46,023 nt of DNA from a virus, in the IMG/VR virus record IMGVR_UViG_3300014493_000001, one strand, 5' to 3'. Below the pieces are notes generated by a model. That model was not told the DNA's origin. It saw nothing but the letters and a program-made list of their open reading frames with translations, and ran no database searches. Positions 12,617-45,148 of this stretch are shown piece by piece. Numbering within the stretch: position 1 is the stretch's first letter; each line of letters starts with the position of its first letter. The translations under genes and the position numbers were made by a program.

Positions 12617-14841
12617 CCCAGAAAGACTATCAGCTGAAGTGGCCGCAGTCCGAGCTCGACCGCATCGGCAACCGGGTCGAAACGGACTACCGCGCCGACA
12701 TCGCCGATCACAACCGGAGAATCGATCGCTGGCGCGGCTACTACCGCCGCTGGCGCGGCCTGGTGGACAGCCCCAACGAGGGAGAGGAGACCGCCTCCAA
12801 CCTGCCGGTACCCTACACCCGCTGGAACTGCATGACCAAGTGGGCCAAGGAAATGGACTCGCTCTTTGGCGACGACGCCGAGATTGTGGCAGTTCCGGTC
12901 GGACCCAGTAACTACAAACGCGACCAGAAAATCTCCAAATACATGAGTTGGCGCGTGTTCAACTCGATGAAGCTGACCAAGCGTTTCTGCGAGTTCGTGC
13001 TCCGCAAAATCATCTTTGGCCGATCGGTAGCCTATTCGCCCTGGAAGCGCGACACCTTCGTCGTACCGCCAACGGAGGACACCGAGCAGGCAGTGAAAAA
13101 GGGGTATCTCAAAGACAGCGAGGAAGACGACGGCGGCTATCGCGTGGTGGACTACGAGGGACCCGACTTCGATCCGCTCTGGCCCGACGACTTCATTGTG
13201 CCGGCGGAGGAAGTGCGATCGCTTCATGAGTTCTCGCATGTGATCCGGCGTTACCGAGTGACACCCGAGCAGCTCCTGCAGGGCGAGGAGGAAGGGCGCT
13301 ACCAGAACATCACCAAGAACTGGAAGACCATCGTCGCCCTGGCTCAGCACGGCTCGCAGCGCGAATACGACGGCGAGGAAATCAAGCGCGAGAAGGACGA
13401 AGCCGAGGGAGTGATGTACGAGCGCCCCATGTCCTCCGGCGAGTGGCTGATGGTGATCGAGTGGTACGGACGCTGGCGGCCGCTCAAGCGCGGACCCCGC
13501 GGCGGCATGCCGAGCGCTTCGGAGTGGGACTTCGACAAGCGCGAGATGCACCAGCAGGATTTCGTGGTCCGATTTCTGTGGGACCTGCGCCTGGTGATCG
13601 GCTGCCAGTCTCTCGCCGAACTGTATCCGCTGAAGAAAGACCGCCGGCCCTTCGTGGAGTCGGCCATGATGGCGGACGGAACCTACTGGTCTCCGGGGCT
13701 GCCGGAGCTGCTCTGCGACCTCGAAGACGATTTAAAGGCGAACCACAACCAGGCGACGGAAGCCGGACAGCTGGCCATGAATCCGCCGCTCGGGTTTAAG
13801 CCCGCCTCCGGTTTCGATCCGCAGACCTTCCGCGTCGAACCCGGCCTGGCGATTCCGCTTAACGATCCGAAAAACGACATTTTCCAGTTTCAGATCAAAG
13901 CGGATATGTCGATCGCGCAATGGAAAGAACAGGTTCTGCTGGCCTACGGCGAACGGCTGACCGGTATGAGCGATATGCACCTCGGCCGGCAGTCGGACCG
14001 CCCCAACGCTCCCAGGACGGGCGTACAGACCCAGCAGCTGCTCGAGGAGGGTAACGTCAGGATCTCGCTCGACACCAAGGTGCTGCGTGAGGACATGTCC
14101 GCCGTTCTCGGCCATTTCTGGGACCTGGAGTATATGTTCTCCGGGCCCCAGATCTTTTTCCGGGTTACCGAAGAGGACGCAGACGGCATGTTTGCGGTGA
14201 ACAACGGCGGCGCCATGCTGACCCTCGAGGACCGCGACGGCCGCTACGATTTCCGCCTGCAGTTCGCGAACTCGGTCTACTCGCGCGAGGCCAAGAAAGA
14301 ACAGAGCCTGGCACGCTACCAGCTGGACCTGCAGAATCCGCTGATAATGTCGAACCCGCTGGCGCTGTGGGAAGTCACCAACAAGGCCCACGAAGCTCTC
14401 GGCGATCCCAACTTCGCCGACCTGGTGCCGCGGCCGCCGCAGCCGGACATTCCGGTGGATCCAAAGACGGAATGGGTCAACCTCCTCCACGGGGAGGACG
14501 TCCAGGTCAACCCGCAGGATAACGACCAGCTCCACCTGATCCGCCATATGAAGGACCTGCAGAGGGCCGAAGACGACACCAGCGGCGCCACCGCAGATCC
14601 GGACGCCATCCAGAAGCTTATGAAGCACTACCGCGACCATATCGCCCAGTTGCAGCAGAAGAAGCTGCAGCAGGCCATCGTGGAGCAGGCGGTGCAGGCG
14701 GCCAGCCGCCTCGCCCAAAGCGGTGCCTTGAAGTTCCCGAACGGGCTCTTCGGTAACGCGCCTCAGATTCCCGCCGGCGATCCGGCAGCAAGCGGGCCGA
14801 GCCCGTACGACGCCGGCGAGCAGGCAAGAAAGGCAGCGTAA
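12613..14841 (+). CDS. Portal protein
   Basis: 742 aa immediately after terL, with an acidic C-terminal region and typical size and position. Assigned by position and general resemblance, not by a strict motif. Confidence 0.7.
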   Translation: MTQKDYQLKWPQSELDRIGNRVETDYRADIADHNRRIDRWRGYYRRWRGLVDSPNEGEETASNLPVPYTRWNCMTKWAKEMDSLFGDDAEIVAVPVGPSNYKRDQKISKYMSWRVFNSMKLTKRFCEFVLRKIIFGRSVAYSPWKRDTFVVPPTEDTEQAVKKGYLKDSEEDDGGYRVVDYEGPDFDPLWPDDFIVPAEEVRSLHEFSHVIRRYRVTPEQLLQGEEEGRYQNITKNWKTIVALAQHGSQREYDGEEIKREKDEAEGVMYERPMSSGEWLMVIEWYGRWRPLKRGPRGGMPSASEWDFDKREMHQQDFVVRFLWDLRLVIGCQSLAELYPLKKDRRPFVESAMMADGTYWSPGLPELLCDLEDDLKANHNQATEAGQLAMNPPLGFKPASGFDPQTFRVEPGLAIPLNDPKNDIFQFQIKADMSIAQWKEQVLLAYGERLTGMSDMHLGRQSDRPNAPRTGVQTQQLLEEGNVRISLDTKVLREDMSAVLGHFWDLEYMFSGPQIFFRVTEEDADGMFAVNNGGAMLTLEDRDGRYDFRLQFANSVYSREAKKEQSLARYQLDLQNPLIMSNPLALWEVTNKAHEALGDPNFADLVPRPPQPDIPVDPKTEWVNLLHGEDVQVNPQDNDQLHLIRHMKDLQRAEDDTSGATADPDAIQKLMKHYRDHIAQLQQKKLQQAIVEQAVQAASRLAQSGALKFPNGLFGNAPQIPAGDPAASGPSPYDAGEQARKAA

Positions 14842-21110: not shown

Positions 21111-22043
21111 ATGTTTATCAGAACGTTATTCCCGGACCTGTTCCTGCAGAGCATGCTCCCGGCGATCGACGAAGTTGTCATGACGAAGTACTCCCGCTTC
21201 CCCGACGAGTTCGTCGACGTTTTCCGCATGGAGTCCAGCTCGCGCTCCATCGAGCAGACCACGGAAGTCACGGGCTTCGGGCAGTTCGCGCTCATCCCGG
21301 AAAACGACACCACGCGCTACGACGACGCGTTGCCAGGGTTCAACAAGACCTACGTCCATGCGCAGTACGGCCTGGGCTTCAAGATGTCGAAAGTGTCCCT
21401 GGACGACGACAAGTTTGGCGTGACGCGCAAGCTCGCGACCGAACTCGGGCGCTCGGCCAAGGAAACCAAGGAAGTCACCGCGGCCAACGTGTTCAATTCG
21501 GGCTTCTCCTACGACACCGGAACTACCAACGGACCGGACGGCCAGCCCCTGTTCTCCACCGCCCACCCGCTCATCGGCGGCGGAACGCAGACCAACAAGC
21601 TCTCTTATGCCACCGATCCCGACGTCACCAGCATTCAGTTGGCGTTGACGGATATGCGGCAGACGGTCGATCACCGCGGCAAGCGGCTGCGGATCCCCTC
21701 GAAGAAAGCCATCTTTCCGCCCACTCTGGAATTCGTGGGAGCGGAACTGTTGGGCGGTTCGGACCGCGCCGACACGGCCAACCGCACCATCAACGCTTTC
21801 CGGCACCGCTCGGGCATGCCCAGCTTCGACTCCTGGATGGTGTGGGACTATTTGACCGACCCGCACGCCTGGTTCCTCGAGGGCGAGAAGTCGGACACCG
21901 AGCTGCGCTTCTACGAGCGCGAGGCCTTCCACACCGTGCACGACATCGATTTCGATTCGCGTTCGGTCAAGACGGCCGGCTGGATGCGCTTCAGCGTGGG
22001 CTTTAACGGCTTCTACGGCATTTACGGAGTCCCCAGCCAATAA
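21111..22043 (+). CDS. Major capsid protein (HK97-fold, Mu gpT-like family)
   Basis: 310 aa with SD GGAGGGG. Motifs PLFSTAHPLIGGGTQTN, LRIPSKKAIFPPTLEFVGAELL and DPHAWFL. The size and pattern are typical of this family. Confidence 0.8.
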   Translation: MFIRTLFPDLFLQSMLPAIDEVVMTKYSRFPDEFVDVFRMESSSRSIEQTTEVTGFGQFALIPENDTTRYDDALPGFNKTYVHAQYGLGFKMSKVSLDDDKFGVTRKLATELGRSAKETKEVTAANVFNSGFSYDTGTTNGPDGQPLFSTAHPLIGGGTQTNKLSYATDPDVTSIQLALTDMRQTVDHRGKRLRIPSKKAIFPPTLEFVGAELLGGSDRADTANRTINAFRHRSGMPSFDSWMVWDYLTDPHAWFLEGEKSDTELRFYEREAFHTVHDIDFDSRSVKTAGWMRFSVGFNGFYGIYGVPSQ

Positions 22044-29787: not shown

Positions 29788-29816
29788 AGCATCGGCGACT
29801 TTGCCGAGAAAGTCAA
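29788..29816 (-). promoter_or_regulatory. Sigma-70-like promoter giving a leaderless Dam transcript
   Basis: On the minus strand: TTGACT (29816..29811), a 17-nt spacer, GATGCT (29793..29788), then 6 nt to ATG 29781. No SD is present. Confidence 0.4.
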
Positions 29817-29919
29817 GGCCGCCGAAAGACCCTTCGCTTCGGGCGGCGTCTCGATCGCGATCGCGTAGGAGATCAATCGCCAAGTGGACGCTGCGCAACA
29901 GCCTCCGGAGACCGCCCCC

Positions 29920-29932
29920 GGCGAATAACCCC
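29920..29932 (+). promoter_or_regulatory. GGCGAATAACCCC box (copy d)
   Basis: Ends 3 nt before GTG 29936, where + strand transcription has to restart after the antisense Dam gene. Confidence 0.5.
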
Positions 29933-29935
29933 GCA

Positions 29936-32900
29936 GTGGGGTACCAGCGAAAAGAAATCCAGATATTGGGCGGCAGCCTGAACCTGCTACCACCGGTCGA
30001 CAAGATCCCGATCACCGACTATCTGCTGGCGCAGAACTGGCGGGTCGATCGCCTTGGCCGGCTGGTGACCAGGTTCGGCTACTCCCTCAAGGGCAATTAC
30101 GCCGGCGCGACGTTTGCGCACTCGGCGGCGATTTACGGGGGCGTCGAGGGCAACTGGTACGTGGCCGCCAACCTGCCCCAGGGCGGGGGTGGGCTCTGGT
30201 TCGCCGGCGGCAACTTCAGTTATATAGCCGGCGGCTACGACGGCAACCGCGTGGGCATGGTGCCGTTCGACGGCGCCATGTATTTCATGAACCAGGGGGC
30301 GCAGGGGAAGCACACGCCGGCGCTCGGCTATCAGCCCTGGACGGTCCTTTCGCCTCCCACCACGGCACTCAAAGCGGCCGCGGGGACGGCGGACGCCAGC
30401 GGACCGAACGGCACCTACCAGTTCTACGTCACCTACGAAACTACCGACGAGAGCCAGGAGACCAATCCGGGACCGGTTTCGGCGCCTGTGGTGTTGAGCG
30501 GCCAGGACGTCATTCTCACAAACATACCGATCAGCACCGCGGCGAATGTCGGCATCCGGAACATCTACGCCACCGGAGGGACGCTGGGGCAGCCCTACCT
30601 CGTCGGCGCGATCAACGACAATACGACGACGTCGGCCGCGTTCAACCTAGCCGACCAGACGGCGACTCCCGGATCCGCCCTGCTGGCGCCGTGGAACGAT
30701 CTTTCGGCTACCGACGAGGGCATCGTCATGCCCATCCAGAACGATCCGCCGCCGCCCGCGGCGGTGATGGTGGGGCCTTACTTTGCGCGGCTGATCGCGT
30801 GTAATACGCTCACCAATCCCAATCGCCTGTGGTGGACTGATCCGGATGAGGTGTACTGGCCGGGCGCATCGGACCCGGCGGTGGGCAACTGGGTCGACGT
30901 GGGCTCCGATGGAGAGGCGATCGTGTGGTGCACCATGCACACCAACGTGCTGGTGATCTACAAAGAGCGATCGATCTGGCGCCTGGTGGGAGATCCGGAC
31001 ACGGGCACGCTCGAGCAGGTGGTGGAAGGCGTCGGCCTGGTGAGCGCGTTTGCGGTGACGTCGGCCGGGCAGCACGATTATTTCGTCGCGCCCAACGGCC
31101 TCTACAAATTCGACCTGGACCGCGCGACCGACATCACCGACCCGATCCGGCCGCTGTTCGACACCACCTACCAGAACGCGGGGCCTCTCACGCGCCTGGG
31201 ATCGATCGCGCCGGGCCCGAACTACTTTTCGAACTCGCTCAACTGCTACGGCGTGGCGCTGGGCTACGCCATGGGTAAGCTGTACGTGGCATTCATGGAG
31301 GAGAGCTCCATCGCGCAAACCCACTGCCCGATGCTGGTCATGCATGAGGCGAGCGGCAAGTGGTTCTACCACCGCACCGCATCGGACGCCGGCGACCTGG
31401 TGGGGTTCAAAGGTTTCGTGTTCGATGGCGTCAACATGGTGGGCCTGACCGGCGACGGCAACTCGTTCTTTCTGTTTTCGCTCGACGACTTCCAGGGGCA
31501 CTATACCCAGGATTCCATCAATGCCGCGATCGAGTGCGTGTGGCAGTCGCACTTCGAAGACGTGGGCGCGCCCGACAATCAGAAAAACTGGCTCGAGGTG
31601 GTGATCGACTGGGAGCCCGCCGGCGACAACGCCACGGTGTGGGTGGCCTACGACGGCGGCACGCGGGCGCTCACGAGCATAGGGCAGCTGCCCGCGGGCA
31701 CGTCTCGGGCGCAGGTCTCATTCCCGCTCGGGCAGGACGGTGTGCTGGCCAAGAATATTTCGGTGGCGATCGATTGCCAGTCCAACTTCGGCATCGTCCT
31801 CCACAACGTTTATCTGTATTACTACGAGGAAGCGCGCCTGGCGATGTCGGCGAGCACCATTCCGGTCGACCTGGGCAGTCCCAAGGTGAAACAGTGCAAG
31901 GAGCTGCAGCTCGACATCGACGCCTCGCGCGGACCGGTGTCCGTCAATCTCTATTCCGACCTGCCCAGCAACCAGCTGGCGGTACAGCACAGCCTCACGG
32001 TGGCGCAAGGCTACGGCCGTTCGCCCATCAATTTCCCGTTTTCCGTGACGGAGGGCTATCTGTGGCGCATCGCGCTCACCGGGCTGAACAGTAATCCCTT
32101 CCGTCTCTATGCCGCGCGCCTGCTGATGCGGCAGATGGGCACTTACGTTCAGGCCTACGAGGCGGCCAACGGCTTCGTGTGGGACTCGATGGAGCACAGC
32201 TTCGAGAGTGCTATTACCAAGATCCCGCGCAGCTTCGCGGTGGCTCTTTCGGCGGTGCCGATCAAACGCTTCCGGACGCTCTCCATCGAAATCGAGACCT
32301 TCGGAGGCAACGTTACCTACGCCTTCTTGACGGATCTTCCAGGGAACGCGCAGGCCTCGCGCCAAACAGGCACGATCAACACGGCGGGGGCCGGCCGGCG
32401 ATACGTGCACATCCCTCTGCCGCAGGGAACCAACACGGCGATCGAGGGGCGGCTGTGCCGTCTGCAGCTGGGCGGAGCTTCGAAGTTCATCCTGTACTCG
32501 GCCGCGGTGGAGCTGCTGCCGATCGGTCTCTACATCGAAGCCTACGAGGCGGCCGGCGGGGCGATGTACGACTCACGAGCGCAGGACGGCGGGACGCCGG
32601 CGGTGAAGGAATGCCGCGAGCTCGAGTTAGACATCGAGACCACCGGCAGCGTGACCGTGCAACTGCTGAGCGATATCTCGGCCACTCAAACATTCGGCAG
32701 CGTGAGCACCACCGGGCGGCAGAAGGTCATGCTGCCTCTGACCGTCAACGCGGCCACGGAGCAATTTGTCGAAGGCCGGCTGCTGCAGCTGCTCATCTCC
32801 GGAACGAACGCCTTCCGGCTGTACGGCGCGCGCGTCAAAGCGCGGGCATTCGGTCAATACCTGCAGGCCTCGGAGACCGCGGGCGGAGCGCTGTGGGACA

Positions 32901-34177
32901 CCACCGATATCGACCTGGGCACGCCCAAGGTCAAACAGTTCCGCGAGCTCGACCTCGACATCTGGGCATACGCGGCCTACACAGTCACCGTCTATTGCGA
33001 CCTGCCGAACCGGCTGGGCGGCACAGTCGGGATGACCTCGCAGGCCACCTTCAGCCAGGGCGCGACTACCGGGCGGACGCGGGTGCGTATCCCCATGGCA
33101 CAGGGCTCGGTACCGGACAACTATCTCTTCGGGCGCCTGGTGCGGGTGACAATCACGAGCTCCGGAGCGTTTAAGTTGTTCAGCGCGCGGATCGACTTCC
33201 GTCCGATCGGGGTGTACATCGAGAGCTACGAAGCCACGGCCAGCCCGGCGGCGGTGTGGGACTCGACGCCGGCGGACCTCGGTAGCCCGGCCGAGAAAAC
33301 CTTCGACCAGGTGCGCTTCGAGATGGACAGCGACGGCAGTTCCCAGGTGACCGTCTACACGGACCTGCCTGGCGAGGTTTTCAGCTCAAAAGGAACCTAC
33401 TCCCTCACGACGGGCCCCACCTCGCGGCACTGGGCGACCGTGCCGCTACTTGGGCCGCCGCTACTCGGGCCGTTTTCCGACCCGGAGGGCCGATCGATCC
33501 GCCTGGTGGCCACGGGCGGCGCCGGGTTCCGCATCTACAAAGCGCAGGTCAGGCACTTCAAGGTGGGGCGATACCTGGCGGCCACCTCGCCGGCCGGCAG
33601 CGACTCCTTCAATACGCTCGACTTCGACTTTCAATCCGAGCGGCCGAAGATGTACAAGCGGATCGAGGTCGACCTGCGCGCCGACCAGCCCGTGAGTCTG
33701 ACGGTTTACACCAGCCAGGGCGGGGGCACGGTGAACTGGGTTTACCAGGCGTCGGTGGCATCGAGCGGACGCCAGGCGCAGACTATCATCCTGCCTCCGG
33801 GGGTGCGCGGGCGCCTGTTCCGGATCGTCATCACAGGCGGTCCGGCGCGCGTCTACCACCTGCGGGTGTGGACGCGGCCGCTCAACGAGCCTAACGCGCA
33901 GTGGAGTTGGGAAGAGTATCCGCTCGAGCAGAGCGACGTGCTGCCGGCCTGGGCCGACCTGGCGGTGGATGCCACGCCGCCGGCGTTCACGATGGCCGAG
34001 ATGCCGGTAGCTGCCACGCCTCCGGATTGGCAGTGGGCGCCGTTTCCGGTGAACCCCACGCCGCCGAGCGCGATCAACGATCCGGCGCAGTGGATCTGGG
34101 GCAAGTTTTTATCGGTGGAGGAGACTCCGGACCTGTGGCAATGGATCGACGTGCCCTTCGAGGTCCAGGGTAAATGA
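29936..34177 (+). CDS. Giant virion structural protein (~1,413 aa): N-terminal beta-propeller-like region plus seven tandem repeats
   Basis: The ORF is open from 29801, but the first 45 codons are Arg-rich and overlap the Dam promoter. GTG 29936 follows box d. Confidence 0.75.
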   Translation: MGYQRKEIQILGGSLNLLPPVDKIPITDYLLAQNWRVDRLGRLVTRFGYSLKGNYAGATFAHSAAIYGGVEGNWYVAANLPQGGGGLWFAGGNFSYIAGGYDGNRVGMVPFDGAMYFMNQGAQGKHTPALGYQPWTVLSPPTTALKAAAGTADASGPNGTYQFYVTYETTDESQETNPGPVSAPVVLSGQDVILTNIPISTAANVGIRNIYATGGTLGQPYLVGAINDNTTTSAAFNLADQTATPGSALLAPWNDLSATDEGIVMPIQNDPPPPAAVMVGPYFARLIACNTLTNPNRLWWTDPDEVYWPGASDPAVGNWVDVGSDGEAIVWCTMHTNVLVIYKERSIWRLVGDPDTGTLEQVVEGVGLVSAFAVTSAGQHDYFVAPNGLYKFDLDRATDITDPIRPLFDTTYQNAGPLTRLGSIAPGPNYFSNSLNCYGVALGYAMGKLYVAFMEESSIAQTHCPMLVMHEASGKWFYHRTASDAGDLVGFKGFVFDGVNMVGLTGDGNSFFLFSLDDFQGHYTQDSINAAIECVWQSHFEDVGAPDNQKNWLEVVIDWEPAGDNATVWVAYDGGTRALTSIGQLPAGTSRAQVSFPLGQDGVLAKNISVAIDCQSNFGIVLHNVYLYYYEEARLAMSASTIPVDLGSPKVKQCKELQLDIDASRGPVSVNLYSDLPSNQLAVQHSLTVAQGYGRSPINFPFSVTEGYLWRIALTGLNSNPFRLYAARLLMRQMGTYVQAYEAANGFVWDSMEHSFESAITKIPRSFAVALSAVPIKRFRTLSIEIETFGGNVTYAFLTDLPGNAQASRQTGTINTAGAGRRYVHIPLPQGTNTAIEGRLCRLQLGGASKFILYSAAVELLPIGLYIEAYEAAGGAMYDSRAQDGGTPAVKECRELELDIETTGSVTVQLLSDISATQTFGSVSTTGRQKVMLPLTVNAATEQFVEGRLLQLLISGTNAFRLYGARVKARAFGQYLQASETAGGALWDTTDIDLGTPKVKQFRELDLDIWAYAAYTVTVYCDLPNRLGGTVGMTSQATFSQGATTGRTRVRIPMAQGSVPDNYLFGRLVRVTITSSGAFKLFSARIDFRPIGVYIESYEATASPAAVWDSTPADLGSPAEKTFDQVRFEMDSDGSSQVTVYTDLPGEVFSSKGTYSLTTGPTSRHWATVPLLGPPLLGPFSDPEGRSIRLVATGGAGFRIYKAQVRHFKVGRYLAATSPAGSDSFNTLDFDFQSERPKMYKRIEVDLRADQPVSLTVYTSQGGGTVNWVYQASVASSGRQAQTIILPPGVRGRLFRIVITGGPARVYHLRVWTRPLNEPNAQWSWEEYPLEQSDVLPAWADLAVDATPPAFTMAEMPVAATPPDWQWAPFPVNPTPPSAINDPAQWIWGKFLSVEETPDLWQWIDVPFEVQGK
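31532..33893 (+). repeat. Seven tandem protein-level repeats of ~105-127 aa inside the giant gene
   Basis: Recurring pattern: YEA..G..WDS...DLG.PK.K...EL.LDI....V.V.LYSDLP......GR.....PL....EGRL.RL.L.G...FRLY.AR. Unit starts are near 31532, 31815, 32146, 32528, 32856, 33212 and 33570. Confidence 0.8.
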
Positions 34178-35045: not shown

Positions 35046-35876
35046 ATGCCCATCGAAATAATCGAGCCGTTCCCCCCTTACGCCTGGCCCATGGCTTGGG
35101 CCTGGCTCGAAAAACACCGGCACATGGTATGCGACGACTTTTCGCCGAAGACGCCGGAAGAATTTGTCGAATTACACAGTAGGGTGGCAGGGTCCTGGCG
35201 GACTTTCGCGGCGCTGAAAGACGGGCAGATCGGAGGGGCTCTGCTCTTTGAGATTTCCGGAGCGATGGCTATCATGCACGTTTTGTATAGCCGGCGATTC
35301 TGGGATCATCGCAGCGCGGCTGAGGCATCGCGTCAGGCCTGCCGCCGAATTTTTGAGTCGACTGGGGTAGTCAAGATTTTGGGCCTGGTTCCGGAACACA
35401 ACCGGCTCGCGCTGGCTTTAGCGCTGCGCGGCGGCGGCAAGGTGGAGGGGCTTCTGCGGCACCACACCACCGTCGACGGCAAGCCGGTGAACGCGGTGGC
35501 GGTGGGGATCACGAGGGAGGAATTCGATGGGATACGCGATGGGCAGCAGCACGCAAAACGACACGCTAACGAACGCGACGCAGAACTCGGCGGGCTCGAA
35601 CACGAACTCGTACAGCACGGCCCAGTCGAGCCTCCAAAACCAGCTGATGCAGGCATTCGCGTCGATGCTGCCGGCGACGGCGAACGGGGGACTCTCCCCG
35701 AATGTGCAGAACATGGAGACGGCCAACGCCAACCAGATCAACGAAAACTCGCAAAGCGTGGGCACGCAGATGAACCGGTACCTGGCGGCCAGAGGATTCG
35801 GAAAGTCGGGAACCATGGGAGAAGCGGCCGAGCAAACCCAACTCGGCCGCGCAAGCGCGCTGGGAGCAAACGCTAG
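35046..35876 (+). CDS. GNAT-like acetyltransferase domain ORF with a long out-of-frame overlap
   Basis: The first ~160 aa resemble RimL-type GNATs (KDGQIGGALLFE..., GLVPEHNRLALALALRGGGKVEGLLRHHTTVDGKPVNAVAVGITREEF). No stop occurs until 35876, and the Arg-rich tail overlaps 35527..36066 in another frame. Confidence 0.45.
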   Translation: MPIEIIEPFPPYAWPMAWAWLEKHRHMVCDDFSPKTPEEFVELHSRVAGSWRTFAALKDGQIGGALLFEISGAMAIMHVLYSRRFWDHRSAAEASRQACRRIFESTGVVKILGLVPEHNRLALALALRGGGKVEGLLRHHTTVDGKPVNAVAVGITREEFDGIRDGQQHAKRHANERDAELGGLEHELVQHGPVEPPKPADAGIRVDAAGDGERGTLPECAEHGDGQRQPDQRKLAKRGHADEPVPGGQRIRKVGNHGRSGRANPTRPRKRAGSKR

Positions 35877-36067: not shown

Positions 36068-37582
36068 ATGGGCGGCTGGCAGGCAACGCTCGGGAGCCCG
36101 GGACAGGGCGGGGTCAGCATCAACCTGGCGCAGAATCTGCGGACGGCCGCGGCGCAACAGGCGAAGCTGGCCGCCCAGCAACAGCAGCAGGACTTCCAGG
36201 ACGAGCTCGAGCTGCGCAAAGCTGGCGCGGTGCCGTACGAGCCGCTGAAGGCTCAACCTAATGCGGATCCACATTCGCTCACCCGCCGCAGCCCGAACCC
36301 CGCACAGCAGGATATCGATCGCAGCCGGATCGTCACCATGCGGGACGGCCGCCAGTGGGTGATGCCGGATAAATCGCAGCTCACTCCCGAGCAGCAGAAC
36401 ACCCAGCAGCACCAGAGCACCGGCGACTTACTCAGCGCGCTGAGGGAAGGCGCGCGGCCGGTCTCGCCGAGCGCGATGGATCCGGCAGGCACCGTGCAGC
36501 AGAATGGCGATATTCCCCGCATGTTGGAGACGGCGGATCCGAACGATCCGAACGCACAGAGTCAGCTGGTACCGGAGGCGCGGTCCGGGGTAAATCTCCC
36601 GGTGTCGGATCAGCCGGGGACGGCATTCTCCGCGGGCGGCAAGCAATTGTACATGCCGACCGACGCGGAGAAATCGGAGCAAGCGCTCCGCGAGAAGACG
36701 AGCCAGGCCTCGGCGATGCAGGACGCGGAGGGATGGGTGCTGCCCGATTCGCTCGCGCGCGCCGCGGCGAAGCATGCGGGACTGCCGGAGGATGCTCTCA
36801 TTGGGGTCAAGCTGCCGCACGAGACAGTTTCGGAGGCGTTCAAGTCGGCCAGCGGTCCGGAGAAACAGGACACACAGAATCCGCTGCCTGGGTATGTGGG
36901 GCCGAAAGGCGGCCCCCTGGTGCGCGATACGAAGACCGGGAAGGTGAACGAGCTCGATCTGCCGGCGGGATCGAAGCCCGCCCTGACGGAAGAGCAGAAG
37001 GCGCGCAAGAGTGAGTTCGATACCGCCGAGGCGGAGCGGAGGGCGAACCGCGATGGACGCGAATCCGACAGAATCGACCGCGCGACGGAAGCCCTGCAAA
37101 CCAAGGTCGACAAGTCGAAGACCGACGAGGACCAGTATCGCCAGCTGGCGGACTCCTACAACTCTGCGGTGGGAGTCGCCAACGGGGAAAAGTATATCGA
37201 CCCGATGGATAAGACCCGGACGCCGAAGATCATGACCCCGGAGAAACGCACCGCCATGGCACAGGCCTACATGCGGTACAAGACCAAGGCCGACGATTTG
37301 GCGAAGCAAGGGGCGGATTACTCGAAACAGATTGAGTCTCGCCAGGCGAAGCGGACCCCGCAGGGACAACAGGCCCCGGCCCCAGCTGGCGGACCGCCGA
37401 CTCGCGCCGGACAGACTCCTGGCCCTACCGCCGCGCCTGGTCAGGGAGCACAGCGGCAACCTACCAGCGTTTCCTCAAGACCGATCGGTATCAACCGGAA
37501 GCTACCGCCGTCTCAGGGAGACCGGGAGCACCACCAGGGGCGGGATTACGTTTTCAACGGCAAGGTGTGGGTGGGGCAATAA
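36068..37582 (+). CDS. Gln/Lys/Pro-rich internal virion-like protein
   Basis: 504 aa, starting 2 nt after the upstream stop. Confidence 0.6.
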   Translation: MGGWQATLGSPGQGGVSINLAQNLRTAAAQQAKLAAQQQQQDFQDELELRKAGAVPYEPLKAQPNADPHSLTRRSPNPAQQDIDRSRIVTMRDGRQWVMPDKSQLTPEQQNTQQHQSTGDLLSALREGARPVSPSAMDPAGTVQQNGDIPRMLETADPNDPNAQSQLVPEARSGVNLPVSDQPGTAFSAGGKQLYMPTDAEKSEQALREKTSQASAMQDAEGWVLPDSLARAAAKHAGLPEDALIGVKLPHETVSEAFKSASGPEKQDTQNPLPGYVGPKGGPLVRDTKTGKVNELDLPAGSKPALTEEQKARKSEFDTAEAERRANRDGRESDRIDRATEALQTKVDKSKTDEDQYRQLADSYNSAVGVANGEKYIDPMDKTRTPKIMTPEKRTAMAQAYMRYKTKADDLAKQGADYSKQIESRQAKRTPQGQQAPAPAGGPPTRAGQTPGPTAAPGQGAQRQPTSVSSRPIGINRKLPPSQGDREHHQGRDYVFNGKVWVGQ

Positions 37583-37599: not shown

Positions 37600-40500
37600 A
37601 TGGGGCCCGACACTTTACCGGCGGATTTCTTCGATCAACAACAGCAGGTCGCGAGCTCCGCACCTCCGGATACTCTGCCGGCGGACTTCGACTTTACGGC
37701 CAAACCTGCAACTCCAACTCCTGGGGCGAAGACGACAATCGGGGCAGCTCCGCCCGCACAAGCACCGCTCAAACCTTCTCAGCAACTCCCACAGCCCAAC
37801 CAGGTCGTACAGGATGCCACCCAGCACGCCAGGGTGATCGCAGAGGCAGCCACGAGGCCGCCGGACCAGACCATCGGGGCATATCACCCCGGAGTCTTAG
37901 AGCGCCTCTGGGCGCCGATCCGCGAGGGTGCCTTCGGGCGCGCTACTCACATGAGCAGCGAAACCGCCGGCGCGCGCGAGGAAGATCCCAGCAATCCCCT
38001 GCTGAAGCTCGATGCCGCGGCTCCGGACGTGGGGCCCGGTGTAACCAAGGCGGCGCTGCAATTCGGCAGCGGATTGACGACGCCGGAGAATCTCCTGCTG
38101 ATGGCAGGTACCGGAGGATTGGGGGCTCTGGAGAAGCAACTCGGCAAGAGCCTGGTAACACGGCTGGTATCGGCCGGCTTTTCGGGGCAGATGTTAAAAA
38201 GTGCCTACGACCAGGTGCCAGCGTTGCGCGAGCACTGGAACAAACAGGACTGGCCCAACGTTCGTGCAGACTTAACTCGTATCACGCTGTCGGGCGGTAT
38301 GGCAGGACTTGCGGCGACGCACGCGGCGAAAGGACCCAAGGAGACCACCAATGTTCCCACCGAAGAAAAGCCCGGCCAGAGCGCCGAGCATGAAGCGGCC
38401 AGCCCCCAAGCGCGGCCAATCGCAGCCGCCGGGCAGCCTGCTCGACCGGCTGAACGCGGCAACCAACCGGCCGCGGTCGATGCCGGTACCGCAGGCCATC
38501 CCGCCGCGCAAACGGAGGTAACCCATGCGGGTGACGACGCTCGTAATCAGGGCGCACCAGGCCCAGCTCCGCGAGGTAGAGCAACTGGTGGGACGCCACC
38601 GGCTGTACGAGAAGGGGACGGACAGCAGCCGATACCTGGACTACCGCGACCGGGCGGAGGCGGACCTGGCGATGGTGAACCTCAATCTCATCCCGGGAGT
38701 GTCGGTGAGAATACTCGGAGAGTGACGGGGTCGGCGGACCTGCCTCTCACCAAGCAAGGAGAGAGGCACGCCGCCAAGATCGACGTCGATCCGGACACGC
38801 AAGTCTTCCACGCGCCGAATCGGCGGAGCGAACAGACCGGGCAGATCGCCAGCGATCGGGCCAAGCCGGCCGCATGGCTGGAACCGTGGAGGCTGGGAGA
38901 GCACGAAGGCAAGCCCCTCCCAGGTGCGCAGCCGATCATCGACGATTTGATGCGCAACCCCGACAAGAAACCGGGGGTCAGTCCGCACTCAGGAGAGGCG
39001 GGGGAATCGTTCCGGACCGCGCGCGATCGCCTGATTACCGGGGCGGCACGGCAGCGCGCCGGCATCGAACCGGGCGATAAGGTTTTGAATGTGACGTCGG
39101 GGCGTGCGATCGCGATCGCCGGCGGACATCCGGAGCAGGAAATCGCGACGGGTCAATTATACCAATGGACTCCGCAGGGCATGAAAGCGGTGGAGGCCGT
39201 CGAGCCGGGTAAGCAGCATTTCATCACGCACGAAGATACGATTTGGAACCCGAGCCCTGATAGTAGTGGCGACGGAAAAGGGCGAGGGATTGCACCCCGT
39301 GTCGTCGTGGGTGATGCTTCAATGGGGCCGCCGCCACCGCAGGAAAGTGTAACACCGCGCGGGCCGGGGTTCATCGGCAATATTCCCACGTCCGAGATCC
39401 ACGCCGACCCCGTGCGATTCCAATTCAAACAGAACGTAGGCCAGGGCGGCGCCGGCGAGACTTTCCGGGATGTGACGAAGTGGGACCCGGAGATGGGCGG
39501 CACGGTCTCGGTGTGGCTCGATCCGGCGGACGGGAAGACGTACGTGGTCAATGGGCATCACCGCCTCGAGATGGCGCAACGCCTGGGCGTTCCCGAGCTG
39601 AGCGTGCGGTACCTGAAAGCCGCGACGGCGCAGGAGGCGCGGCTCAAGGGCGCCATTATTAATATCGCCGAGGCCTCGCAGACGGCCAGCTCGATCGACG
39701 CGGCGAAGGTGTTTCGCGACTCCGGCATGACCGAGGAAGAGATCGCGGCCGATGGCCGGATCGCCATGAAAGGAAAGCTCGCGAAAGAAGGATTCGCGCT
39801 CTCGAAACTAGCGCAGCCCATCTTCGACGATGTAACTGCGGGCGAGCTCACGCCAGCGCGCGGCGCCGTAATTGGTGCGGGAGTTCCCAACCACGCGGAC
39901 CAGATTGCCTTGTACGACATCGTCCGCAAGATGGAGCGCGGAGGTAAGCGGCTTACAAACGATCAGCTCGAAGAGTTGATCCGGATGAACAGCCGGGCGC
40001 CGAAGATCACAGAGAGCACGGCGGACCAGGCGCAGGCCTCCATGTTCGGCGAAGAGGAGATGACGCGCTCACTGCTGCCGGAGAAGGCCATCGTTTCCGA
40101 CTATGTGCGGTCGCAGCTGAAAGCGGAGAGGAAACTTTTCGGGGCGGTGTCTTCCCAAGCGGCCGCGGAGCGTTTAGGGGAGGCCGGTAACGTTATCCAA
40201 ACCAGTACCAATGCGGCCAAAGCCGAGGGTGCAAATCAGGGCATTTCGCTGTACGATAAGCTGAGCACTTCAGCCGGACCGATCGATGGCATTCTCGACC
40301 GTGCAGCGCAGCGACTTGCCAATGGAGAAAACGCCAATGACGCCAAAGAGCAAGCCTACCGAGAGACCCGAGACTATCTCGCGCAGCAGATCCGTCAACT
40401 CTCCGGAATTCCGGAGGGAGATGCTCGACGAGTTAGTGGAAGCCTACCAGCAGGGGACAGTGAAGCTCGCGCCGGGCAACACGATCAAGCCCCGGTAGTC

Positions 40501-43341
40501 GAACCGCAGCCCGCGCCGGCCGCGGAATCCCCTAAGTCCGACCTCGAGCGCCAGGTCGAAGCCGCGCGCGCAGAGCATGACAAACTCGTCGAGGCAGCCA
40601 AAGCCCGCCTCAAAGCCAGAAAGAAGCGACTCGAGCGCGGCAGTTTCTCACAGCGGGACTCGGAAGCCGGCCAGGGACTCTTCAGCAAGCAGGATTTCGA
40701 CGACATGGTGCTGGTGGCGGGGGACTACATCCACCGCGCCGGCGATGCCTTCGTGGAATATGTCAAGGCCATGGTGGCAGAGTACGGCGACACTGTGCGC
40801 CCGCTACTGCGGAAAGCATACCTTGCGGCCAAGACGCGGGCGCAGGCGCAGGACGATCTTTTCGCGGAGCGGCCGGCGGCGCCGGAGCCCGGCGGATTCA
40901 CTCCGGAGGCGCTGCTGCACGATCGGCTTACCGCTCAGATGAAATCCGGCGGGCGGGTCAAGGCTTCGAAGTTGAAGGCGGCGCAGTCGCGGAGTCTGTT
41001 CGACGAGGAAGGGCCGGAGAGCGGCAACCTGTTCGCAGCCGAGGATCTGCCGCGGGCGGAGCGGGAGAGCTTGAGTCTGTTCGCAGGCGACGAGCGCGGG
41101 AGTTTTTCGTTCAAGGCGAAAAGCGGCGGCGGCGTGGCGGACTCATTTCTGCGGGCGGATCTCAAGGCGGTAAAGGAACTGAAGGCGAAGAGGGACGCGG
41201 GCCTGGCCGCGGTGAAGAAGGCGGCCGCCGATCCCGCGGAGAAGGCTTTCGGGCAGCGGCTGGTCGAATACTACACGGGCGAGCGTGACATGTGGGTCAC
41301 GCGCGTCAACCAGGTGCTCGATCGGCTCAAGGCCCTGGTGCCGGGAGCGGTGGAGCGGCAGGGCATCGCCATCTACCGTGATTTCAAGACACGGCCCGGC
41401 GAGCTGCAGCAGTGGCTCAACGGTACCCACGTCAATTTGCGGACGCTCAGCGGCGCCGATCTAAAGACTGCGATGGATCGGATCCAGGAGTTGCGGCCGG
41501 CAATCCTGCAGGCGCTGCACCCCACGAAACGTATGCTCGATGCGGATAAGGTGCTGACCACGATCGCTGAGGCGTCATTCGCCGAGGGGCATCGGTTGGG
41601 ATTCATCCCTCGAGAATTGAACTCGGAGCGGTACTTCACCCACCTGTTATTTCCGAAGGGCGAAGCGCCGGTGCCGGTGCCGATCGGAGAGCGAATGGGA
41701 AAGGCGCTCGGCGGCAAGATCGGTCGGGAGTACGCGTTCTCGGCGAGGCGCGAATATCCCACCGTGCTCGATGCGATCGCGGACAATGTGAAGCCGAAGA
41801 CCCTCGACCCGTTCGTAGCGTTTGCGATTCACGGCGACGCTTTCGCCACGGCGCGCGCGACTCACTTACTGATCGAGGCCCTGCGGCGTCCGGGAGTCGG
41901 AGGGTACGCCAACGGCGCCGCTAAATGGTTCGCCGGTTCGGACCGCCGGATTCCGGAGGGCTGGGTCGCGGCCGCGCGCCATTCTCGCTTGTTCTCACAG
42001 GATGGCGAGTATGTAGACCCAGTGACGGGAGAAAAGGTACTCGCGGAGCAGCAGCTCTATGTCCCCAAAGTTATCGACCAGGCTCTGCGGCCGATCACGG
42101 ATCCGGATTACATGAACCGGTTGCCGGGCTTCGCGCAATTGCGACACACGCAGGCATATCTGAAGGCCGTACAGTTGGGTCTCTCGTTCTTCCACGTGAC
42201 CACCGAGAACTATATGGCTCTGGCCAACATGGGGCCAAAGGGTTGGTGGCAAGGCCTACGTGCCGATCGCGATAGCGCCGACTTCCTGAAGGCGGAGCGG
42301 GAGTTCATCGGGCACGGCGGTACCACCTCGGTGCTCGGGCGCACGGTGGAAGCGTACAAAGCGCTCGAGCCCGGGCTGATTCCGACCTGGGGGGATATTT
42401 GGAAGAGCGCTCCGGTGGTGCGCGAGGTCGACCATCTCGCCGGCAAAATCACGGAATTCACTTTCGGCAAGATCCAGCGTCAGTTCAAGGTCACCGATTA
42501 CGGACTCCATAAGGCGGCCTGGCTGGCGGACCACCCGAACGCGACGCAGATGGAGACGCGGGCGGCCATGGGCTCGATCAGTAAAGAGATTAACGCGGTC
42601 TACGGTGGGCTGAACTGGGAGAATCTTGGGATCAACCACATGAGCGTCGAGGTCACGCGCGCGCTGTTATTGGCGCCCGATTGGACGATCAGTAACGTGT
42701 TCAATCTCAAGTACTCGTTCGAACGCGGTACAGAGGCTGGGAAGCTCGCGCGTATGTTCTGGATCCGCCAACTGGTGGGCGGGATCGCTCTGACGGAGGC
42801 CACTAGCCTAATGCTGGGCGGGAGACTGTCGAAGGATCCCACGCAGGTGTACATGGGGCACGACAAGGACGGAAAAGACATCTACCAGAACGTGTTTTTC
42901 AAGGGCGCCGGGGGCGACGTCGTCAACTTTGTGCACGACACGCTCGACTACGGCGGAGTGCAGGGGCCGATCCGGTTCATGGCTGGGAAGGGCGCCCCGT
43001 TCATCCGGACCGGGATGGAGCTGGCGAACAACGAGGACTTCCTGCACCGCGAGCTGATTCCGAAGGGCATGAATCCGGTGGCGTCGACGGCGCGCGGACT
43101 CTGGGAAGCGGCTAAAGGCGTCGCGCCCACTCCGCTCACTCTGACGAACTGGAAGGACATGCTGATCGGTCCGAAAGCGGATCAGTACAGTGTGCCGGAG
43201 TTTCTGACGGTTCCCTTCGCTGGAACGGCGCCGCGGCACGTCCCCTCAGGTGGCATGCGGATGAGACACGGCGAGCTCGAAGAGTACGAGCCGCCGGCGA
43301 ATCGGTCGATCTGGGATGAAATCGTTTCGGGCAAGCGCTAG
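37600..43341 (+). CDS. 1,913-aa polyvalent-type virion protein with a ParB/Srx domain and a degenerate histidine-phosphatase-like domain
   Basis: The ParB-like segment at 39382..39663 reads IPTSEIHADPVRFQFKQ...YVVNGHHRLEMAQRLGVPELSVRYL. The HP-like segment at 38716..39117 reads ADLPLTKQGERHA, FHAPNRRSEQTGQIA, LGEHEGKPL, GEAGESFRTARDRL, VTSGRAIAI. A large conserved-looking C-terminal region follows. Confidence 0.8.
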   Translation: MGPDTLPADFFDQQQQVASSAPPDTLPADFDFTAKPATPTPGAKTTIGAAPPAQAPLKPSQQLPQPNQVVQDATQHARVIAEAATRPPDQTIGAYHPGVLERLWAPIREGAFGRATHMSSETAGAREEDPSNPLLKLDAAAPDVGPGVTKAALQFGSGLTTPENLLLMAGTGGLGALEKQLGKSLVTRLVSAGFSGQMLKSAYDQVPALREHWNKQDWPNVRADLTRITLSGGMAGLAATHAAKGPKETTNVPTEEKPGQSAEHEAASPQARPIAAAGQPARPAERGNQPAAVDAGTAGHPAAQTEVTHAGDDARNQGAPGPAPRGRATGGTPPAVREGDGQQPIPGLPRPGGGGPGDGEPQSHPGSVGENTRRVTGSADLPLTKQGERHAAKIDVDPDTQVFHAPNRRSEQTGQIASDRAKPAAWLEPWRLGEHEGKPLPGAQPIIDDLMRNPDKKPGVSPHSGEAGESFRTARDRLITGAARQRAGIEPGDKVLNVTSGRAIAIAGGHPEQEIATGQLYQWTPQGMKAVEAVEPGKQHFITHEDTIWNPSPDSSGDGKGRGIAPRVVVGDASMGPPPPQESVTPRGPGFIGNIPTSEIHADPVRFQFKQNVGQGGAGETFRDVTKWDPEMGGTVSVWLDPADGKTYVVNGHHRLEMAQRLGVPELSVRYLKAATAQEARLKGAIINIAEASQTASSIDAAKVFRDSGMTEEEIAADGRIAMKGKLAKEGFALSKLAQPIFDDVTAGELTPARGAVIGAGVPNHADQIALYDIVRKMERGGKRLTNDQLEELIRMNSRAPKITESTADQAQASMFGEEEMTRSLLPEKAIVSDYVRSQLKAERKLFGAVSSQAAAERLGEAGNVIQTSTNAAKAEGANQGISLYDKLSTSAGPIDGILDRAAQRLANGENANDAKEQAYRETRDYLAQQIRQLSGIPEGDARRVSGSLPAGDSEARAGQHDQAPVVEPQPAPAAESPKSDLERQVEAARAEHDKLVEAAKARLKARKKRLERGSFSQRDSEAGQGLFSKQDFDDMVLVAGDYIHRAGDAFVEYVKAMVAEYGDTVRPLLRKAYLAAKTRAQAQDDLFAERPAAPEPGGFTPEALLHDRLTAQMKSGGRVKASKLKAAQSRSLFDEEGPESGNLFAAEDLPRAERESLSLFAGDERGSFSFKAKSGGGVADSFLRADLKAVKELKAKRDAGLAAVKKAAADPAEKAFGQRLVEYYTGERDMWVTRVNQVLDRLKALVPGAVERQGIAIYRDFKTRPGELQQWLNGTHVNLRTLSGADLKTAMDRIQELRPAILQALHPTKRMLDADKVLTTIAEASFAEGHRLGFIPRELNSERYFTHLLFPKGEAPVPVPIGERMGKALGGKIGREYAFSARREYPTVLDAIADNVKPKTLDPFVAFAIHGDAFATARATHLLIEALRRPGVGGYANGAAKWFAGSDRRIPEGWVAAARHSRLFSQDGEYVDPVTGEKVLAEQQLYVPKVIDQALRPITDPDYMNRLPGFAQLRHTQAYLKAVQLGLSFFHVTTENYMALANMGPKGWWQGLRADRDSADFLKAEREFIGHGGTTSVLGRTVEAYKALEPGLIPTWGDIWKSAPVVREVDHLAGKITEFTFGKIQRQFKVTDYGLHKAAWLADHPNATQMETRAAMGSISKEINAVYGGLNWENLGINHMSVEVTRALLLAPDWTISNVFNLKYSFERGTEAGKLARMFWIRQLVGGIALTEATSLMLGGRLSKDPTQVYMGHDKDGKDIYQNVFFKGAGGDVVNFVHDTLDYGGVQGPIRFMAGKGAPFIRTGMELANNEDFLHRELIPKGMNPVASTARGLWEAAKGVAPTPLTLTNWKDMLIGPKADQYSVPEFLTVPFAGTAPRHVPSGGMRMRHGELEEYEPPANRSIWDEIVSGKR

Positions 43342-43625
43342 TATTTCCCGCCGTGGGTGATCGCCGAGTTGGCATCCATGCGCGCCTCGCGGATCTTCCG
43401 TATGGCGACGGCGCGGTCGGGGCCTGGTGGGACGTCAGAAATGATCTGGCAGACGGCCTGGGCTAATACCTGGCGTACGCGGCTGCCCGCTTCGATTTGT
43501 TCCGGGGTCCACGCGTGGTAGTCGAAGGCATCGAACACCGCGGCTTCGACGGCTGGAGTGAGTGTTGTTGCGCGCGTGATGTCCACCTTGGGGACGGCAG
43601 GCTCGGAGAGTTGTTGTGGTGTCAT
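43338..43625 (-). CDS. Hypothetical small protein
   Basis: 95-aa ORF. The pattern FDYHAWTPEQ...VPPGPDRAVAIRKIREARMDANSAI recalls a small protein family I have seen in other phages, which is unverified. Confidence 0.6.
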   Translation of the reverse strand: MTPQQLSEPAVPKVDITRATTLTPAVEAAVFDAFDYHAWTPEQIEAGSRVRQVLAQAVCQIISDVPPGPDRAVAIRKIREARMDANSAITHGGKY

Positions 43626-44469: not shown

Positions 44470-44498
44470 TTGATTGTTTAAGCTGCTTAAGCTATTCT
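44470..44498 (+). promoter_or_regulatory. Sigma-70-like promoter with a palindromic operator in the spacer
   Basis: TTGATT (44470..44475), a 17-nt spacer, then TATTCT (44493..44498). The palindrome TTAAGC-T-GCTTAA lies at 44478..44490, and a third TTAAGC half-site at 44426..44431. Confidence 0.45.
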
Positions 44499-44518
44499 GG
44501 TTTCAGGAGGCAATGCGA

Positions 44519-45148
44519 ATGAGCGCGGCGTACATGGTGAGCCCGAGACCGATCGAGTCGAAGCCGATCAGTGGACTGAGAGAGCCGGTGGAATTCGAGC
44601 CAAACAAGCCGGTCGAGATGGCGTTGAAGTACTCGCAGGGCAAGACGGTGAACACGCGGACCGGAGAGAGAGTGATGTTCTCACTGGTCGACGGGCGGGT
44701 GATGTTCCTGGATCCGGAGCCGGCGGCGAAGATCGCGGCACTGGGCGCGCGGGCGGGTGAAAAGATTTGCGTGTGCATGCAGTGGAGCGGGAAGCGCGGG
44801 GATCCGCGCGAGTGGACGGCCTGGCTATCGACGGACTCGGAGCTCCGGAGGGCGCAATCGGACGCCAGGGCGAACGGCGACAAGTGGAACGATCGTAGAC
44901 TGGAGGACAAGATGATTCAACGGGTGGAATCGGCTGCGCAGGCACCGCCGATCGCCGCGGCGGCGCCGGCAGCGCAGCAGATGATGAGTCCCGAATCGCT
45001 GGCATTGCTCTCGCAGTGCCGGCAGCTGGTGGACGTCTTTTGGTTCACCCTGTCGTACGCTCGCAAGGAATACGGCGACCAGGTTAGCGCGCAAACGGTC
45101 CTCGGGCTGGTTCAGGCGGCCGCGGCGCCGAAGAAAGCGGGGCGCTGA
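44519..45148 (+). CDS. Hypothetical early protein
   Basis: 209 aa from the second ATG, 8 nt after AGGAGG. The first ATG at 44513 lies only 2 nt from the SD. Confidence 0.6.
   Translation: MSAAYMVSPRPIESKPISGLREPVEFEPNKPVEMALKYSQGKTVNTRTGERVMFSLVDGRVMFLDPEPAAKIAALGARAGEKICVCMQWSGKRGDPREWTAWLSTDSELRRAQSDARANGDKWNDRRLEDKMIQRVESAAQAPPIAAAAPAAQQMMSPESLALLSQCRQLVDVFWFTLSYARKEYGDQVSAQTVLGLVQAAAAPKKAGR

Follow-up and report, generated by a model that had tools for sequence, protein, structure and literature searches.

A 1,913-residue phage polyvalent protein carrying a circularly permuted histidine-phosphatase domain

The virus record IMGVR_UViG_3300014493_000001 (IMG/VR), 46,023 nucleotides long and hereafter called the window, encodes at 37600..43341 on its plus strand an open reading frame (ORF) of 1,913 amino acids (aa) with an ATG start, according to the ORF list and the translation. 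Our results place its product, the query of the searches described here, in the polyvalent class of phage proteins as a new member with a novel variant of the histidine-phosphatase (HP) fold. Specifically, the HP domain is circularly permuted, such that strand 1 and the RHGETxWN motif come last, not first. The protein is built from four modules: an N-terminal module (N-module, aa 1-304), the HP domain (aa 365-556), a ParB/helix-turn-helix (HTH) module (aa 590-775, with conservation extending to about aa 975), and a C-terminal module (C-module, aa 1130-1913). A Pro/Gly/Ala-rich linker separates the N-module from the HP domain, a short linker the HP domain from the ParB module, and a charged linker the ParB module from the C-module. 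The features of the gene are given below, each with its basis in brackets; AF2 stands for AlphaFold2, and pLDDT for the predicted local distance difference test score.

37600..43341, plus strand: whole gene, modular polyvalent protein (ORF list, translation, 16 large homologues)
37600..38511, plus strand: N-module, aa 1-304, first half of the conserved chassis (blastp, phmmer)
37606..37695, plus strand: short motif PDTLPADF(F/D), duplicated, aa 3-12 and aa 23-32 (read from the translation)
38692..39267, plus strand: circularly permuted HP domain (His_Phos_1), aa 365-556 (Pfam, AF2, Foldseek, family profile against PhoE)
38716..38733, plus strand: RRVTGS, aa 373-378, a family signature equivalent to the 'GRxxG' segment after RHGETxWN (Pfam alignment, family alignments)
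38824..38907, plus strand: R409 (GpmA Arg62 equivalent) and E436 (Glu89 equivalent), both retained (family alignments)
39094..39105, plus strand: T499-S500-G501-R502, with Ser for the second catalytic His (alignment with 'vTHG' in PhoE and the family)
39217..39249, plus strand: H540-FITHEDTIWN-550, permuted strand 1 and RHGETxWN motif (alignments, de-permutation, AF2)
39367..39924, plus strand: ParB/Srx-type N-domain and ParB-type HTH, aa 590-775 (profile against PDB, PHROG)
39550..39564, plus strand: NGHHR box, aa 651-655 (aligned to the GERR box)
39925..40524, plus strand: helical extension of the ParB module, aa 776-975, sharing its conservation (phrog_21, 10-homologue alignment)
40525..40986, plus strand: Pro/Ala/Glu-rich, charged helical linker, aa 976-1129 (composition, low pLDDT)
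40987..43338, plus strand: C-module, aa 1130-1913, mostly helical, second half of the chassis (homologues, AF2, BFVD)

Module borders were set by blastp comparison with 16 large homologues (1,100-3,100 aa), each of which has a different subset of the query modules, and then by hidden Markov model scans of all collected proteins. The ORF is real: although no clear Shine-Dalgarno sequence precedes the ATG at 37600, homologue starts fall within about 6 residues of it in blastp (residue 2 of relative P0013 corresponds to query residue 8), and the start is credible given these nearby homologue starts and a common N-terminal motif. The GC (guanine plus cytosine) content of about 0.62 is uniform over the window, and a scan for terminators and promoters 3' of the gene gave nothing above chance. 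Searched as a whole against the PDB with phmmer, the protein returned only spurious matches to de novo TIM barrels, and neither LPD nor helicase-methylase domains were found in it with Pfam and PHROG.

The fold of the HP domain is evident from several methods. Pfam His_Phos_1, a match already present in precomputed annotations, scores 29-34 bits over aa 371-507 (cut-off 21.7); AF2 models the domain with a pLDDT of 93 and a predicted template-modelling (TM) score, pTM, of 0.89; and Foldseek with that model returned 135 PDB matches at E<=1e-3 (best E about 2e-6, TM scores 0.57-0.67), with HP-superfamily structures making up 50 of the 50 matches listed. The domain has the alpha/beta fold of HP branch 1 (PF00300; dPGM, PhoE, CobC, SixA). 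An earlier reading of this DNA from its letters (the original prediction) had aligned the segment 38716..39117 by eye to the same fold; that part is upheld by Pfam, AF2, and Foldseek, while its motif detail fails, the domain being permuted. The Pfam match spans only profile positions 12-154 of 194, and since it begins at position 12, it does not cover strand 1 and the RHG motif. It opens at RRVTGS (profile position 12-16), which lies at about profile positions 14-20, in the GRxxGxxDxPL region. Hence RRVTGS, formerly taken to be an altered RHG position, aligns downstream of RHGETxWN, and the true motif is C-terminal. No strand 1 with an RHG motif was found at the N-terminal end of the domain; the equivalent, with H544, sits at its C-terminal end.

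The permutation is a property of a whole family. An exhaustive phmmer search over 1.84 billion representative proteins (E<=1e-3) recovered 109 relatives of the HP domain and was the informative search, a word-indexed homologue search with the family profile having recovered few members. About 40 relatives are standalone proteins below about 260 aa, and the remainder lie inside longer proteins, the longest of about 4,700 aa. Standalone members carry ...RRVTGSADxPL at the start, xTHGR in mid-chain, and YFARHGETxWN, the canonical N-terminal HP signature, 1-12 residues before the C-terminus. When the C-terminal strand and motif were moved to the N-terminus and the Pfam model was rescored, three relatives scored 107.2, 70.0, and 112.5 bits, up from 96.9, 55.3, and 100.4, respectively, and the match then reached profile position 1-2. 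Further, the family profile aligns to PhoE (1ebb/1h2e; E=3e-24) in two out-of-order pieces, with profile positions 22-168 corresponding to PhoE residues 17-163 and profile positions 212-227 ('iYfarHgeTawNeedk') to PhoE residues 4-19 ('LYLTRHGETKWNVERR'). In the query, AF2 gives a confident C-terminal strand (aa 538-543, pLDDT 98) that leads into H544, and we infer that this last strand takes the strand-1 position of the sheet. A C-terminal RHG left over from a truncated tandem duplicate was also considered and is rejected for the proteins as they exist now: standalone members stop 1-12 residues past the motif and lack an N-terminal RHG.

Several observations bear on where the permuted family occurs. 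The members whose context was inspected lie in phage structural-gene surroundings or form part of giant multidomain proteins. In a 56-kb phage contig, for example, the standalone permuted HP gene P0152 lies directly 3' of a 777-aa gene, a candidate portal as read from sequence and position, without a Pfam match; the slot right after the portal is the usual place of minor head proteins. Separately, the family alignment showed that the C-terminal segment following the permuted HP domain of P0047 (537 aa) ends in ...PPSHPNCMCSL, which we take to resemble the Phage_Mu_F minor-head-protein motif; if correct, this would tie the HP family to MuF-type capsid-packaged fusions. Many standalone members also open with a conserved peptide, MP(T/R)A(K/H)(L/I)S(D/E)I, upstream of RRVTGS (seen among P0049, P0051, P0052, P0056-58, P0064, P0072, P0084, P0101, and P0118), which could be a fold element, a targeting signal, or a cleavage signal.

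The active site of the permuted domain is partly conserved and partly rebuilt. H544 stands in the nucleophile column, which is His in 93 of the 93 members with both regions aligned, and the H and T columns of the C-terminal motif are invariant in the family alignment (48/48 sequences). De-permuting the query brings T547, W549, and N550 into register with profile positions 9-12, and H544 thereby onto that of the nucleophile. R409 and E436, equivalent to Arg62 and Glu89 in the numbering of E. coli GpmA, are the predicted second phosphate-pocket Arg and Glu proton donor; their columns are nearly invariant, with R in 124 and E in 116 of the 131 family members aligned, and Thr413 is also retained. 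At the remaining sites, S500 stands where PhoE and about half of the family have His, T543 stands for the Arg of RHG, and E545 for its Gly. The Gly-Glu of RHGE thereby reads E545-D546, the most divergent form of the motif, found in 2 of 93 sequences, both from the query phage. The original prediction had both catalytic His replaced. It was right that the later SHG reads TSG (T499-S500-G501), with the second His gone, and wrong about the first, given that H544 is kept and that the other loss is the Arg of RHG. A non-catalytic domain, as predicted then, is possible but not implied, with the nucleophile His and the Arg62 and Glu89 equivalents in place.

Across the family, the second-His column and the Arg-of-RHG column co-vary. 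His is paired with Arg in 38 members, and Ser with Glu in 22, with Gln in 8, and with Thr, the state of the query, in 6; mixed states occur in fewer members. These counts are of related sequences (93 members) and not of independent events. The state of Ser plus Glu, Gln, or Thr accounts for about 40% of the family. Judged by its residues, the site of the query could be active, re-specified, or binding-only. Relative to HP branch 1, then, the permuted family conserves the TxWN motif and the nucleophile His, together with counterparts of Arg62 and Glu89, and differs in the order of its elements and in its small size (109 representatives per 1.84 billion), while the query differs further in its Thr for the Arg of RHG and its Ser for the second His. 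No circularly permuted histidine phosphatase or phosphoglycerate mutase, and no polyvalent protein with a histidine phosphatase, was found in the full-text literature, the coverage of which was incomplete; permutation of the HP fold combined with a co-varying pocket appears to be undescribed so far. Two implications follow. First, the apparent loss of the nucleophile, and the pseudoenzyme call based on it, is corrected by recognizing the permutation, a case in which annotation by motif order can mislead. Second, a co-varying pocket pair around an invariant nucleophile offers a natural series for how the HP pocket sets specificity.

The second central module resembles ParB. The earlier proposal of a ParB segment at 39382..39663 is borne out by a match to phrog_1033 (ParB-like; aa 635-717, E=1.7e-4) and by a profile of the module (10 sequences), for which the top four PDB matches were Caulobacter crescentus ParB (6t1f, E=3.5e-4), Noc (two sequences), and Spo0J, in an alignment that spans the GERR box (GHHR in the query) through the HTH. 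A longer match, to phrog_21, covers aa 584-932 (E=1e-65), and one homologue of the module weakly matches Pfam HTH_ParB. Membership in the ParB/Srx superfamily, with an N-domain, a GxxR box, and detection by profile, is therefore a prediction of moderate strength. Compared with chromosomal and plasmid ParB, Noc, and Spo0J, the query is alignable from the GERR-box region (NGHHR) through box III and the HTH, and it has no C-terminal dimerization domain and no ParA partner, none having been detected among the proteins scanned. It keeps GxxR, but not the CTP-binding arginines: the query boxes are NGHHRLEMA and (I)NIAE, against GERRxRA in box II and ENLQR in box III, and the module is not a CTPase-clamp ParB by these boxes. 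Its His-His-Arg box, as we read it, is closer to ParB-like nucleases than to the CTP clamp. A DdrB-like ParB was also tried and rejected, with no match to PF18763 at E<=1 and an hhalign probability of 0.1 for the profile of the query module against the DdrB-ParB-bearing region of P0012, P0013, P0017, and P0026. The query module is 34% identical to part of a 2,563-aa protein of the Prochlorococcus podophage P-SCSP1, a lytic T7-like cyanophage, in which the gene lies downstream of the tail-tube genes gp11 and gp12. The ParB module is all that the two proteins have in common, as neither the C-module nor the HP domain was found in the P-SCSP1 giant protein. Large genes at such a position have been speculated to encode internal virion proteins (PMC9860041).

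Around this variable middle stand the two halves of what we call the chassis. The N-module, with a conserved, Gly-rich, helical core at aa 140-250, matched 11 relatives by blastp and phmmer (P0003, P0004, P0005, P0013, P0016, P0018, P0028, P0043, P0055, P0089, and P0138) and no model in Pfam, PHROG, or NCBIfam. It opens with the duplicated motif, which reads PDTLPADFFD and PDTLPADFDF in the query. Related D[IV]FDQ[VI] duplicates lie at aa 3-18 in P0003, P0013, P0138, and P0151, relatives having DIFDQV twice in the first 20 residues, and motifs of this type occur 16 times over 166 proteins against 1.4 expected by shuffling. The duplicated motif may be a docking or packaging signal. It was also found again in linkers of relatives.

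The C-module corresponds to the C-terminal region of about 800 aa that had been described as conserved, and it has 27 homologues, including standalone proteins of 776-824 aa. AF2 models it as mainly helical (pLDDT 74, pTM 0.76), and the first 110 residues of that model (aa 1101-1210) are mostly of low pLDDT. Against BFVD, the model matched C-terminal pieces of many uncultured Caudovirales entries (E down to 3e-15, TM score about 0.5) that are annotated as large polyvalent protein, Zeta toxin, RelA/SpoT, helicase, or methylase. Foldseek against the PDB gave no significant match (best E=0.12), and no Pfam, PHROG, or NCBIfam model was found. Matches to helical transporters (E>=0.12, TM score about 0.1) were rejected as generic helix matches, given their insignificant scores and the lack of transmembrane helices by Kyte-Doolittle analysis. 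The C-module is thus a widespread unit of polyvalent proteins, about 780 aa long, that has neither a Pfam model nor a solved relative. One of its homologues is annotated from a Gemmatimonadaceae metagenome-assembled genome, a weak hint to the host lineage.

Comparison of the relatives revealed how these parts are combined. About 10 proteins have the order N-module, permuted HP domain, optional ParB module, C-module. Some proteins with the C-module carry the HP domain, and others alternatively carry DdrB-ParB, PBECR1, Zeta_toxin, or AAA_33; directly upstream of the ParB module, relatives have Zeta_toxin, CTP_transf_like, RelA_SpoT, 2H/Acb1-like, or ART-PolyVal, and LPD38 is also among their domains. 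This retention of the N- and C-modules with a swapped middle is the signature of phage polyvalent proteins, a class whose hallmarks include ART-PolyVal, PBECR1, DdrB-ParB, Zeta toxin, 2H, and RelA/SpoT (Iyer, Burroughs, Anand, de Souza, and Aravind 2017, J Bacteriol, PMC5512222), the very domains that the relatives swap; the polyvalent label given to the protein at the outset is well founded. The query joins at least two unrelated conflict-type domains in one polypeptide (HP and ParB/HTH, with two uncharacterized modules), and its relatives shuffle hallmark domains. Like the published examples, among them P1 DdrB/DarB and N4 vRNAP-type fusions (PMC5512222), it is very large and multidomain, is encoded amid late virion genes, and connects unrelated catalytic and DNA-binding domains by low-complexity linkers, and the model of its C-module matches phage entries named "large polyvalent protein associated domain". 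It differs from them in that MPTase, MuF, portal, LPD, and helicase-methylase domains were not detected, in that its ParB module is not of the DdrB-like type, and in its HP domain, a type not covered in the main text of PMC5512222, which mentions neither phosphatases nor phosphoglycerate mutases. Polyvalent proteins and their ParB modules are themselves already known. Regarding their fate, the presence of the P1 Dar proteins in the virion is reviewed in PMC5512222, and the large polyvalent protein gp47 of phi24B was detected in virion proteomics (bioRxiv 10.64898/2026.04.10.717836).

The surroundings of the gene agree with this assignment. The window looks like the complete or nearly complete genome of a very novel temperate phage, with the following neighbors.

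10594..12432, plus strand: large terminase
12580..14841, plus strand: portal-like gene
21111..22043, plus strand: HK97-type major capsid protein
25273.. and 28250.., plus strand: tail/structural protein matches
29801..34177, plus strand: 1,458-aa protein (weak PHROG matches: virion structural, E=1.5e-9; internal virion, E=1e-4)
35046..35876, plus strand: GNAT-like ORF (phrog_4470, E=1.5e-3; Pfam Acetyltransf_3, E=7e-4, below the cut-off)
36068..37582, plus strand: 504-aa Q/A/P-rich protein, directly upstream of the 1,913-aa gene (no family match)
43338..43625, minus strand: 95-aa ORF, convergent, overlapping the stop of the 1,913-aa gene by 4 nucleotides (Pfam PF24729)
44474..45148, plus strand: 224-aa ORF of the same length as an L002 gene annotated Phage_integrase, at a similar downstream distance

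The matches to terminase, portal, major capsid, tail, and virion-structural proteins all lie upstream of the 1,913-aa gene on the same strand, the gene for the 1,458-aa protein being 3.4 kb upstream, and the 1,913-aa gene closes the late structural operon. Lying last among the late structural genes, it occupies a place that suits a packaged or ejected protein, and the original prediction had likewise compared its position with that of internal or ejected proteins in podovirus-like phages. The related 47.7-kb phage contig L002 has the same synteny, including a GNAT-like ORF at the same position (35% identity, with Acetyltransf_3 weak there too). In L002, a 460-aa gene (8628..10010) with a partial ParB module and a faint PBECR1 match precedes and overlaps a 797-aa C-module gene (10001..12394); its ParB module begins inside the GHHR helix, the N-terminal half being missing. 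These adjacent genes, one for cargo and one for chassis, represent a split version of the polyvalent protein, due either to real fission or to an assembly frameshift. The 504-aa protein was rejected as a conserved partner, as it has no homologue at the equivalent position in L002, L003, or L004, where a protein of 437-480 aa takes its place. Integrases lie nearby in all three of these loci; in the window, the 224-aa ORF had no Pfam match at E<=1e-3 and only a spurious one in NCBIfam.

The "podovirus-like" label attached to the phage is weakly supported. As with the T7 ejection proteins gp14, gp15, and gp16, the query gene lies at the distal end of the structural module, and the query shares its ParB module with the P-SCSP1 giant protein. 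In contrast, the C-module matched no solved ejectosome protein by fold in the PDB, and neither likeness to gp14, gp15, or gp16 nor a lytic transglycosylase domain was found with Pfam, PHROG, and PDB folds. The best portal match in 50,697 phage records has 26% identity over 39% of its length, and tblastn found no match for the 1,458-aa protein in cultured phages. With so distant a portal, and with this protein and the C-module lacking matches, the phage is not placeable taxonomically.

Taken together, the 1,913-aa protein is probably a large phage polyvalent protein in which a conserved chassis bears interchangeable cargo, here the permuted HP domain and the ParB/HTH module, and which is packaged and delivered at infection. 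It would be made late and packaged into the virion, and would enter the cell at infection alongside the DNA, with packaging and exit with the DNA being the presumed job of the chassis. Inside the cell, the ParB/HTH module would engage DNA, most likely by binding and perhaps by nicking it, and the HP domain would bind or hydrolyze a phosphorylated small molecule. That molecule would most likely be nucleotide-derived, considering that relatives have a Zeta-like kinase, a nucleotidyltransferase, RelA/SpoT, or a 2H/Acb1-like phosphodiesterase in the same slot. The domain identities, the permutation, the exchange of modules, and the late-gene setting are observed in the sequences, whereas packaging, ejection, substrates, and activity of the remodeled pocket, along with the counter-defense role put forward in the original prediction, are inferences. 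Such a chassis-plus-cargo scheme, for which a split-gene relative exists, could guide searches for injected anti-defense functions in uncultured phages and could aid the engineering of cargo delivery.

A number of findings weigh against this proposal. The case for packaging and ejection, of this protein or of a close homologue, is made from context and analogy. Neither peptidoglycan hydrolase, MuF, portal, nor MPTase domains (Pfam, PHROG), nor classical transmembrane helices (Kyte-Doolittle), were found in the protein, and the C-module had no tblastn match in cultured phages. In L003 and L004, the homologous gene lies at the edge of an integrated element with no structural genes visible in the flank examined. 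The ParB assignment is moderate (E about 1e-4), and Pfam, ParBc included, gave no match to the module. Finally, two of the four phosphate-pocket residues are gone in the query (S500 and T543), de-permuting the query gained only 0.8 bits, and its HP copy may be inactive.

These last points lead to the alternative that we take most seriously while still tending to doubt it, namely, that within a delivered polyvalent protein the HP domain of the query is a pseudoenzyme that binds a ligand or phospho-ligand. The replacement of the Arg of RHG and of the second His, a motif form confined to the query phage, and the near absence of a Pfam gain upon de-permutation are what such a domain would show. 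However, His544, Arg409, Thr413, Glu436, T547, W549, and N550 are all retained, and the pairing of Ser with Glu, Gln, or Thr recurs with co-variation in a large part of the family, which suggests a remodeled rather than a decayed site. Less plausibly, the whole protein could be a purely structural component of the virion (of a tail-tip, central-fiber, or tape-measure-like kind) with inert enzyme-like domains. Its gene is the largest and closes a structural block; the C-module is large, helical, and conserved; the HP pocket is degraded at two positions; and enzymatic activity of the domains is at most predicted. Nevertheless, the exchange of the middle modules for effector-type enzymes (ART, Zeta kinase, 2H, RelA/SpoT, PBECR) is unexpected for spacers, the invariance of the nucleophile His in 93 HP copies, along with other core residues, argues for selection on the site, and the long continuous coiled coil or transmembrane segment typical of tape-measure proteins is lacking. 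Least likely of all is an intracellular, non-virion factor of a temperate element, acting in ParB-like DNA binding, partition, or replication initiation with an accessory phosphatase, which is suggested by the resemblance of the ParB N-domain and HTH to chromosomal ParB, Noc, and Spo0J, by the integrases of related elements, and by the position of the gene beside an integrase and regulators in L003 and L004, but which sits poorly with the lack of a detected ParA, with a gene co-oriented and contiguous with structural genes in both the window and L002, with the same ParB module downstream of the tail-tube genes of a lytic phage, and with a size and cargo swapping that fit polyvalent proteins.

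Returning to the delivered polyvalent protein, a bolder extension can be put forward, although we regard it as improbable. The permuted HP family would comprise phage-restricted, virion-delivered enzymes, the remodeled variants of which would have switched to an immune-signaling or other nucleotide-derived substrate that is destroyed or sequestered at genome entry, in a dyad with ParB/HTH. If true, this would define a previously unrecognized class of injected counter-defense enzyme, and the sponge candidate immediately downstream would belong to the same anti-signaling island. That candidate is the convergent 95-aa ORF, which had no homologue in loci L001-L006 and which, from its profile match, is a candidate cyclic-nucleotide sponge (anti-CBASS or anti-Thoeris). 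It matches PF24729 (Acb2_Tad1_hairpin) with E=1.5e-6 and 28.7 bits, against a cut-off of 27, over profile positions 1-57 of 58, and a weak PDB match, to "Acb2 homolog 43" (9ptq, E=0.8), falls in the same register.

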